A DNA stretch of 64,000 nucleotides from Chloroflexota bacterium (GCA_016235055.1 JACRMK010000009.1:24435-88434), one strand, 5' to 3'. Counted from the stretch's first letter, positions 7,999 to 8,609 are shown. Made by a program: numbers and translations. The notes: generated from the letters alone by a model not told the origin.

Positions 7999-8397
7999 AT
8001 GATGCCGGAGCGCACGATGCCACCAGTCAGCCCGCTGCAGCAGGAATTCGAATTCAGCTTGCCGAAAGGTTACGTGGACGATAACGGCAAGGTCCATAAG
8101 TCCGGCTTGATGCGCCTCTCCACCGCAATGGACGAGATTGCGCCGCTGCGCGACATGCGCGTGCGGAACAACCAGGCGTACCTCACCGTGGCGATCCTGG
8201 CGCGCGTGATCACCCGCCTCGGCGACCTGTCCGAAATCAATACGACGATCATCGAGAAGCTGTTCACCGGCGACTTGGCGTACCTGCAGGATTTCTATCG
8301 CCGGATCAACAGCGACGGCGAGAGCGCCATGAACGTGACGTGCCCGAACTGCGCGCACACGTTCCAGGTGGAGACCAACCCGGCGGGGGGATCGTAG
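7999..8397 (+). CDS. Tail assembly chaperone-like protein (P2 gpE / lambda gpG analog), 0-frame product
   Basis: Occupies the sheath-tube-chaperone position. LPKGYVDDNGKVHKSGLMRLSTAMDEIAPLRDMRVRNNQAYLTVAILARVITRLGDL..IIEKLFTGDLAYLQDFYRRIN resembles gpE-type chaperones. C-terminal CPNC zinc-ribbon-like half site. The start is ambiguous: ATG 7999/8002, or ATG 8017, which has GGAG 6 nt upstream. Confidence 0.6.
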   Translation: MMPERTMPPVSPLQQEFEFSLPKGYVDDNGKVHKSGLMRLSTAMDEIAPLRDMRVRNNQAYLTVAILARVITRLGDLSEINTTIIEKLFTGDLAYLQDFYRRINSDGESAMNVTCPNCAHTFQVETNPAGGS

Positions 8398-8609
8398 GCT
8401 ACCCCCTCGATAGCCTGTTCGAGGAGGTAGCCTTTGTCGCATATCATTTCCACTGGGACCTCGATGCGATTCTCGCGCTGACACACGGCGACCGCCAGCG
8501 CTTCATCGACGAGATATCCACGATCAACAGGCAGATGAACGAAACGCCGTCGCAGTCCAAGGGCATACCGCTTCAGGACCTGGTGTTTGGCACCGACTAC
8601 AATGCTTGA
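8340..8609 (+). CDS. -1 frame extension ORF (DUF6760-like small conserved domain), probably expressed as a frameshift fusion to 7999..8397
   Basis: The conserved-looking part starts at IVGYPLDSLFEEVAFVAYHFHWDLDAILALTHGDRQRFIDEISTINRQ, immediately after the slippery site. The only in-frame start is GTG 8340, 58 nt inside the upstream gene and without an RBS. Confidence 0.55.
   Translation: MPELRAHVPGGDQPGGGIVGYPLDSLFEEVAFVAYHFHWDLDAILALTHGDRQRFIDEISTINRQMNETPSQSKGIPLQDLVFGTDYNA
8385..8433 (+). promoter_or_regulatory. Candidate programmed -1 ribosomal frameshift signal (slippery heptamer + stem-loop)
   Basis: G_GGG_GGA at 8385-8391 is phased on the 0 frame (GCG GGG GGA TCG TAG), followed by a 4-nt spacer. 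The stem pairs 8396-8410 (aggctaccccctcga) with 8419-8433 (tcgaggaggtagcct), 14 of 15 positions, with an 8-nt loop. The 0-frame stop TAG at 8395-8397 sits at the stem base. Confidence 0.55.

Follow-up and report, generated by a model that had tools for sequence, protein, structure and literature searches.

The -1 frameshift cassette of Escherichia coli dnaX combines an upstream Shine-Dalgarno (SD) sequence, the slippery heptamer A_AAA_AAG and a downstream hairpin. The chaperone frameshift represented by gpG/gpGT of phage lambda is reportedly conserved among long-tailed phages, and its description is credited to Levin, Hendrix & Casjens in 1993 and to Xu, Hendrix & Duda in 2004. In phage P2, whose operon has the order FI-FII-E-E'-T-U-D, the annotated slip site is ggT_TTT_TTG, six codons ahead of the E stop. 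Here we describe two overlapping open reading frames (ORFs) in a 64,000-nt stretch of DNA from a Chloroflexota bacterium (GCA_016235055.1 JACRMK010000009.1:24435-88434), hereafter the window, with positions counted from its first letter. The segment from about 7500 to 17800 is the operon of an extracellular contractile injection system (eCIS). We estimate the probability that the junction of the two ORFs is a site of programmed -1 ribosomal frameshifting at roughly 0.8. On the sequence evidence we classify the locus as a recoded chaperone of the P2 E/E+E' type retained in an eCIS: a known kind of element in a new instance, not annotated as such.

The elements of the junction are the following.

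8007..8010, + strand: Shine-Dalgarno GGAG, 6 nt ahead of ATG 8017, read from the sequence
8017..8397, + strand: zero-frame ORF resembling a tail assembly chaperone, 126 aa (132 aa if started at ATG 7999), C terminus ...VETNPAGGS and stop
8370..8373, + strand: SD-like GGAG inside the zero-frame ORF, 11 nt ahead of the heptamer, possibly stimulatory
8385..8391, + strand: slippery heptamer G_GGG_GGA, in phase with the zero frame
8395..8397, + strand: zero-frame stop TAG
8396..8433, + strand: hairpin, 8396-8410 pairing with 8419-8433, 14 pairs with one C/A mismatch and an 8-nt loop, 4 nt past the heptamer
8391..8609, + strand: -1 frame extension of 72 aa, DUF6760 domain (Pfam PF20546)
join(8017..8391, 8391..8609), + strand: predicted fusion of 197 aa, junction ...NPAGG-IVGYPLD...

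The zero-frame codons at the junction are ...AAC CCG GCG GGG GGA TCG TAG. Read from 8391, the -1 frame gives IVGYPLDSLFEEVAFVAYHFHW... and is open up to TGA 8607-8609. The only ATG, GTG or TTG of this frame in the window is GTG 8340, and no -1 frame start codon lies within 50 nt of the junction. An earlier reading made from the DNA alone (the sequence-only reading) had pointed out the in-phase heptamer shortly before the TAG, the stem 4 nt downstream of it, the -1 frame open to 8609 and GTG 8340 as the sole candidate start; all four were recovered. It had also predicted a short form and a fusion arising from one junction, a view supported here, and had given their sizes as about 132 and 203 aa. 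These we revise to 126 and 197 aa: ATG 8017 is a likelier start than ATG 7999, because GGAG lies 6 nt upstream and the position agrees with the N termini of homologues (MPPVSPLQQ; homologue P0004). Folding of positions 8380-8450 yielded a minimum free energy (MFE) of -31.3 kcal/mol with z = -2.98, and one of 200 shuffled sequences folded as well.

Related loci were collected by scanning one genome per species. The scan returned 80 loci, mostly from metagenome-assembled genomes (MAGs) of Chloroflexota, which makes 81 with the window. In 79 of the 81 loci, the window included, DUF6760 occupies the -1 frame and adjoins the chaperone stop. One of the two others (L011) appeared to be a +1 case; it has the usual -1 junction followed by a later 1-nt deletion, on a contig of 2x coverage, and with it the -1 layout is present in 80 of 81 loci. 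The other (L005) is a true in-frame fusion, in which the frame is restored by a change located 3' of the G-run and not inside it. Judged by these counts, the -1 layout is far beyond chance. DUF6760 was found in 24 of the 301 genomes sampled in the phylum and in 19 of 172 genera.

All 79 loci carry a run of 5-8 G at the junction. The first G always occupies codon position 3, the wobble position of the codon before, irrespective of the residue specified there. Elsewhere in the related loci, runs of at least 6 G occurred only 73 times in 458 kb. In 64 of the 79 loci the run forms an in-phase XXXYYYZ heptamer, G6A or G7 in almost all cases. Glycine codon usage is skewed at the slip site (69% GGG, 22% GGA), whereas elsewhere in the same genes GGC accounts for 54% of the glycine codons. 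When the loci were aligned without gaps on a conserved Tyr codon, the register between the G-run and the DUF6760 frame was invariant; the zero-frame stop varied in position, at -8, -5 or +7 nt relative to the Tyr codon. At the shortest, the overlap of the two open frames is 13 nt, and the G-run is then the only place left for a transition between them.

The hairpin was assessed in the same 79 loci. Paired cells made up 83.5% of the total, compared with 32-58% in slid controls. One hairpin pair showed compensatory change (GC:56, AU:7, CG:5), and GGC/GCC, AGC/GCT and CGC/GCG covary, so that the codon-first base of a variable residue changes together with the wobble base of an Ala codon. As in a dnaX-type cassette, a downstream stem-loop with covariation is found 4-9 nt past the heptamer. 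An SD-like 4-mer at -20..-5 was present in 59 of 79 loci and in 15% of background windows, a comparison confounded by the fact that GGAG encodes a conserved V-E. The orthologues thus have the features that the sequence-only reading had named as distinguishing: the slippery run is kept in phase, the ORFs stay in the 0 and -1 frames, and most bacterial loci possess the stem-loop. Overlapping ORFs located 3' of a tube gene, a -1 ORF devoid of a start and ribosome binding site of its own, and an in-phase slippery sequence conserved in position are found together here, as in recoded chaperone genes.

The same genome contains a second such junction (L082, contig C21:178272-178424), which reads CTGGGGGGATCGTAG and has the same G_GGG_GGA TCG TAG sequence and a hairpin. 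Its -1 frame opens just 7 codons upstream and has no start codon at all. This second chaperone/DUF6760 pair suggests that the genome has two eCIS loci. Beyond Chloroflexota, a tblastn search of plasmid records identified 46 replicons, each of which matched in two pieces. Eleven loci of finished isolates were read (Nostoc, Rhodococcus, three Streptomyces, Streptantibioticus, S. clavuligerus, Paenibacillus, Paraburkholderia, Ralstonia, Halogeometricum, Haloferax). All eleven, from five bacterial phyla and the haloarchaea, have the -1 layout; the nine bacterial loci keep an in-phase G_GGG_G and the two haloarchaeal loci have the lambda-like, in-phase G_GGA_AAT/C. The Streptomyces hairpin is retained with wholly different arms (GACGUACGCGA/UCGCGUACGUC). 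In the two haloarchaeal loci (L101, Halogeometricum pHBOR03; L107, Haloferax pHl5678-1) the chaperone is longer and acidic, the heptamer is 16 nt ahead of the stop, and the ORFs overlap in ATGA. We regard both as candidates for -1 frameshifting in Archaea. More distant relatives (IMG/VR contigs; 33-39% identity; upstream protein of 270 aa) carry in-phase T_TTT_TTA, T_TTT_TTT or T_TTT_TTC instead. The slippery sequence has been exchanged and the frame relation retained, a pattern that marks selected recoding.

Three natural in-frame fusions resemble the product predicted for the window. Their junctions read GGVIVYPLD (P0006), GGVIGYPLD (P0012) and GGSVGYPLD (L005), against GG-IVGYPLD for the window. 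RefSeq annotates two separate genes at loci of this type. In Nostoc (plasmid pn3; L100 3360) the DUF6760 coding sequence called by the RefSeq annotation pipeline (PGAP) begins at a non-canonical ATA, and in Rhodococcus (plasmid pWB1; L102 3390) the start is a downstream TTG, which cuts off the conserved IIGYPL. These odd starts look like symptoms of a missing real start.

The -1 ORF matched Pfam DUF6760 (PF20546) with 60.3 bits, the cut-off being 27, and so did 27 of 27 aligned relatives. The zero-frame ORF matched PHROG 508, 'tail assembly chaperone' (E 9.2e-9), in line with the identity proposed by the sequence-only reading. Its homologues number 1996, at about 127 aa each, and NCBI names one of them 'phage tail assembly protein'; RefSeq gives the same name to the chaperone in Nostoc and Rhodococcus. 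The suggested parallel with P2 E/E+E' is borne out by the extension: the DUF6760 profile aligned with the E' extension of P2 gpE+E' (hhalign probability 83.6%, E 8.1e-6, 29 columns), the two have the motif (V/M)A..A..FHWP in common, and Pfam Phage_P2_GpE (PF06528) was matched by 9 of 27 DUF6760 members (best E 2e-4). The similarity is moderate, and the copy in the window does not exceed Pfam's own cut-off for PF06528. Taken together, the profile comparisons indicate that the DUF6760 extension is homologous to P2 E' and not a mere analogue. The AlphaFold2 (AF2) model of the DUF6760 part (pLDDT, the predicted local distance difference test, 80.5) consists of three helices and is confident over residues 1-50; a Foldseek search of the PDB with this model gave E values of 6.9 or higher only. 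The chaperone body was poorly modelled (pLDDT 56.9), and its model was unfit for a fold search. An NCBIfam search gave no match for any of the small ORFs, and in the phage collection the sole match was a marginal one in Bacillus phage BCD7. In a MAFFT alignment of the combined fusion, which was set aside as misaligned, the chaperone segment INTTIIEKLFTGDLAYLQDFY (8260-8330) was placed on the DUF6760 segment encoded by 8391-8456, a weak internal resemblance that may be due to chance.

The sequence architecture, its conservation and the kinship of the extension with P2 E' are shown by the comparisons above; that a slip occurs, how efficient it is, and what each product does and binds are inferred, as follows. 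The frames 8017..8397 and 8391..8609 would form a single recoded gene, the eCIS counterpart of P2 E/E+E'. The majority of ribosomes would stay in the zero frame and end at TAG 8395, yielding the 126-aa chaperone. Some would pause on the hairpin 8396-8433, whereupon tRNA-Gly on the GGG (and GGA) of G_GGG_GGA would re-pair one base back, possibly assisted by the SD-like GGAG 11 nt upstream of the heptamer. These ribosomes would then read on in the -1 frame and produce a 197-aa protein that combines the N-terminal body of the short form with an E'-like three-helix domain, DUF6760, at its C terminus. Lambda G/GT and P2 E/E+E' serve as the model for function: the body common to both forms would hold a tape-measure-like client, with tube subunits recruited by the extension.

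Several observations weigh against this interpretation. In 15 of the 79 loci, as in most isolates outside Chloroflexota, the run provides G_GGG_G only, which is non-canonical for tandem slippage; there, only single slippage in the P site could operate. The hairpin is missing in six Chloroflexota loci (L019, L021, L032, L033, L038 and L046; MFE -6 to -13) and in the two haloarchaeal loci, and it is weak in Paenibacillus. The six loci may rely on a different stimulator or on reinitiation. They carry ..IVYPLDRLYEEMAY.., and in them TGA invariably comes after the G-run, giving rise to GTGA or ATGA. The conservation of phase and hairpin is partly confounded by coding constraints in two frames. As to the kinship with P2, the chaperone body matched the gpE-family chaperones of Pfam below threshold only: Gp41_Mu (PF23746) in 15 of 32 members (best E 0.0074) and Phage_TAC_7 (PF10109) in 9 of 32 (best E 0.0066). 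Alignment of the body with P2 gpE alone by hhalign gave nothing. Searches of Pfam, NCBIfam and PHROG yielded no tape-measure family among the genes that follow DUF6760. Lastly, an ATG or GTG overlaps the TGA stop (ATGA/GTGA) in 23 of the 79 loci, among them all six without a hairpin, and also in Streptomyces and the haloarchaea; at all of these loci coupled reinitiation could additionally yield a free DUF6760 protein.

The overlapping start codons speak for a different view, which also agrees with the RefSeq annotation: DUF6760 would be a separate small protein, made by termination-reinitiation (translational coupling) near the chaperone stop or from GTG 8340, and no fusion would exist. We consider this unlikely. 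In 38 of the 79 loci the open -1 frame contains no ATG, GTG or TTG anywhere, in favour of the sequence-only reading, and the second locus of this genome has none either. Coupled reinitiation is not possible at these loci, about half of the total, nor in the window with its 50 nt devoid of starts. Initiation at GTG 8340 was rejected, this codon not being conserved. Where an ATG or GTG does overlap a TGA stop, it arises automatically from GGA or GGG followed by TGA. The conserved GYPL codons precede the zero-frame stop in L063, L069, L074 and Ralstonia, and separate initiation had to be annotated from ATA in Nostoc and from a start that removes IIGYPL in Rhodococcus. The invariant wobble G, the glycine codon skew and the replacement of the G-run by T-runs are left unexplained by two independent proteins.

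The identical fusion could in principle be made by transcriptional slippage, if RNA polymerase stuttered on the G-run and added one G to the mRNA. Homopolymer runs are the substrate of such slippage, and the distant relatives have runs of T6-T9; for those with T9 it is more credible. For the junctions described here we hold it to be quite unlikely: many loci have only 5 G, which is short for polymerase slippage, the process has no need of the strict run phase seen in 79 of 79 loci, and ribosomal -1 frameshifting is typified by the combination seen here, a hairpin 4-7 nt downstream and an SD-like element some 11 nt upstream. Metatranscriptome Logan contigs of relatives contained the genomic form only; such contigs drop rare variants and are hence uninformative on slippage. 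Finally, that the split is not biological, being a sequencing or assembly error in the G-run of one in-frame ORF or a phase-variable tract, is very improbable in spite of the error-proneness of homopolymers and the three in-frame versions (P0006, P0012, L005, one of them from a long-read MAG), because the same -1 layout was found in 80 of 81 independent assemblies, in finished isolates and in two loci of this genome, the G-run length, which the sequence-only reading had flagged as a possible artefact, was reproduced in independent assemblies (G6 without indels in Logan contigs of four separate groundwater metagenome runs), and the frame of L005 is restored downstream of the run. Ribosomal frameshifting remains the reading we prefer.

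The surroundings of the gene are those of an injection system.

84..1313: AAA ATPase, eCIS cluster
4075..4833: DUF4157/eCIS_core protein, eCIS cluster
4830..5756: Pvc16_N cap, eCIS cluster
5828..7438: sheath gene, eCIS cluster
7500..7943, + strand: tube gene 1, Pfam Phage_T4_gp19 (E 1.7e-32), directly upstream of the chaperone ORF
8602..8859, + strand: next gene, 85 aa, Ala/Gly/Pro-rich, its ATG overlapping the DUF6760 stop (ATGCTTGA)
8862..9305: second tube gene, eCIS cluster
9334..11484, + strand: 716-aa DUF4157/eCIS_core protein, Pfam eCIS_core (E 8.9e-17), with HExxH
12003..12947: LysM/CIS_tube initiator, eCIS cluster
12960..14747: VgrG spike, eCIS cluster
after VgrG: gp25, Baseplate_J and P2-I-like wedge, eCIS cluster

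Sheath, tube, Pvc16-type cap, AAA ATPase, VgrG, gp25 and Baseplate_J are clustered, as in Afp/PVC-like eCIS, and the gene order is of the Streptomyces type. The ORFs scanned between 84 and 30376 included no capsid or terminase family. Past the baseplate genes, 20040..26854 encodes two NHL-repeat beta-propeller proteins and several large Ig-like/FixG_C-domain proteins, candidates for fibre or target-binding components or for cargo. From about 26800 onwards there are housekeeping genes (YceD, FabD-like, FabG-like, NusB).

On its 3' side DUF6760 is followed by the 85-aa Ala/Gly/Pro-rich ORF, the second tube gene and the gene of the 716-aa DUF4157 protein. Comparison of this order with P2 FI-FII-E-E'-T-U-D puts the 716-aa DUF4157/eCIS_core protein in the position of the P2 tape measure, and it is a candidate client of the chaperone. 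The 85-aa ORF (..AVADRVYELMRRDLLVHQERTGGR, then stop) and the 716-aa protein (..KIAQDVYELLKTRLRGELTRHSIY, then stop) have a C-terminal ..VYEL[ML][RK].. motif in common. In both proteins it lies 13 residues ahead of the stop, the C termini being encoded at 8800-8856 and 11425-11481. In L001, L006, L008, L019, L029, L036 and L038 the same motif ends the small ORF after DUF6760 and/or a protein of 550-704 aa about 2.7 kb downstream. The motif may be a shared docking or chaperone-binding module.

A wider proposal can be put forward tentatively, at less than even odds: a frameshifted chaperone of the E/E+E' type might be an unrecognised core part of the Streptomyces-type (lineage II) eCIS/CIS clade in bacteria and haloarchaea, its long form nucleating tube polymerisation around a non-canonical, tape-measure-like client marked by the C-terminal ..VYELLR..L..ER.. 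motif (the 85-aa and 716-aa proteins). If true, it would explain length setting in systems said to lack Afp14 and would add a conserved -1 frameshift in Archaea.

Among the papers covered by our literature search none mentions DUF6760, and none a frameshift of an eCIS chaperone, which agrees with the supposition of the sequence-only reading that such recoding was undocumented in eCIS. Papers on the Streptomyces CIS list extra proteins of 'unknown function', note the absence of a typical tape measure and describe the product of sco4251, likewise of unknown function, as present in purified particles (PMC10066040, PMC10020575). From gene order, our guess is that sco4251 encodes the chaperone. Because these papers list the genes as of 'unknown function' and find no typical tape measure, the chaperone pair would offer a direct handle on assembly and length setting in Streptomyces-type CIS.

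The interpretation would give DUF6760 a concrete role, that of an E'-like, frameshift-dependent domain of a tail assembly chaperone, and would correct a systematic annotation error, the two-gene calls that RefSeq makes at hundreds of bacterial and archaeal loci, some of them with ATA or truncated starts. It would also mean that a phage recoding device was inherited along with the tail by eCIS of the Streptomyces/Chloroflexota type. For heterologous expression or engineering of the particles, the slippery site and the hairpin would have to stay intact, or both products be supplied. The haloarchaeal copies would make a natural test case for -1 frameshifting in Archaea.

Four described systems lend themselves to comparison. 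Cis6/Afp6/Pvc6/Alg6 is the spike-plug protein of eCIS (PMC8894136, PMC12546770). Like DUF6760, it is a small helical eCIS protein that was long unplaced; unlike DUF6760, it is encoded next to the tube-initiator and spike genes. The identification of DUF6760 with Cis6 was unsupported: a PDB search with the DUF6760 profile gave no CIS chain and the fold search nothing. PDB sequence searches with the DUF6760 profile, the chaperone profile and the ORFs 8602..8859 and 11562..11891 returned no match.

With dnaX the locus has a layout of three elements in common: it carries an in-phase heptamer, a stable hairpin 4-6 nt past it and, about 11 nt before it, an SD-like GGAG whose role is putative and confounded by coding. 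The heptamer, the gene and the outcome differ, in that the frameshift product of dnaX is truncated whereas that of the eCIS gene would be extended. In lambda gpG/gpGT, as proposed for the eCIS gene, a -1 slip allows a single gene to yield two products at a fixed ratio, and the haloarchaeal relatives even use the lambda-like G_GGA_AAT/C. There was no detectable sequence similarity between the lambda and eCIS chaperones. Lambda frameshifting, moreover, does not need a downstream structure, and the lambda tail is non-contractile, both in contrast to the eCIS.

P2 gpE/gpE+E' is the closest counterpart. It differs in that the eCIS slippery sequence is a G-run followed by a conserved hairpin, that the eCIS chaperone body has a C-terminal CxxC ribbon and reaches the P2/Mu chaperone families of Pfam below threshold, that the host system is an eCIS with AAA ATPase and Pvc16 cap instead of a phage, and that the gene after the eCIS extension is not a recognisable tape measure. 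The likenesses concern the layout and the extension. In both systems the gene directly follows the sheath and tube genes, a short zero-frame product is paired with a -1 extension of 55-70 aa, and the slippery run lies few codons before the stop. The distant eCIS relatives use T_TTT_TTA/G, and the extensions are homologous, as indicated by hhalign, the FHWP motif and PF06528.

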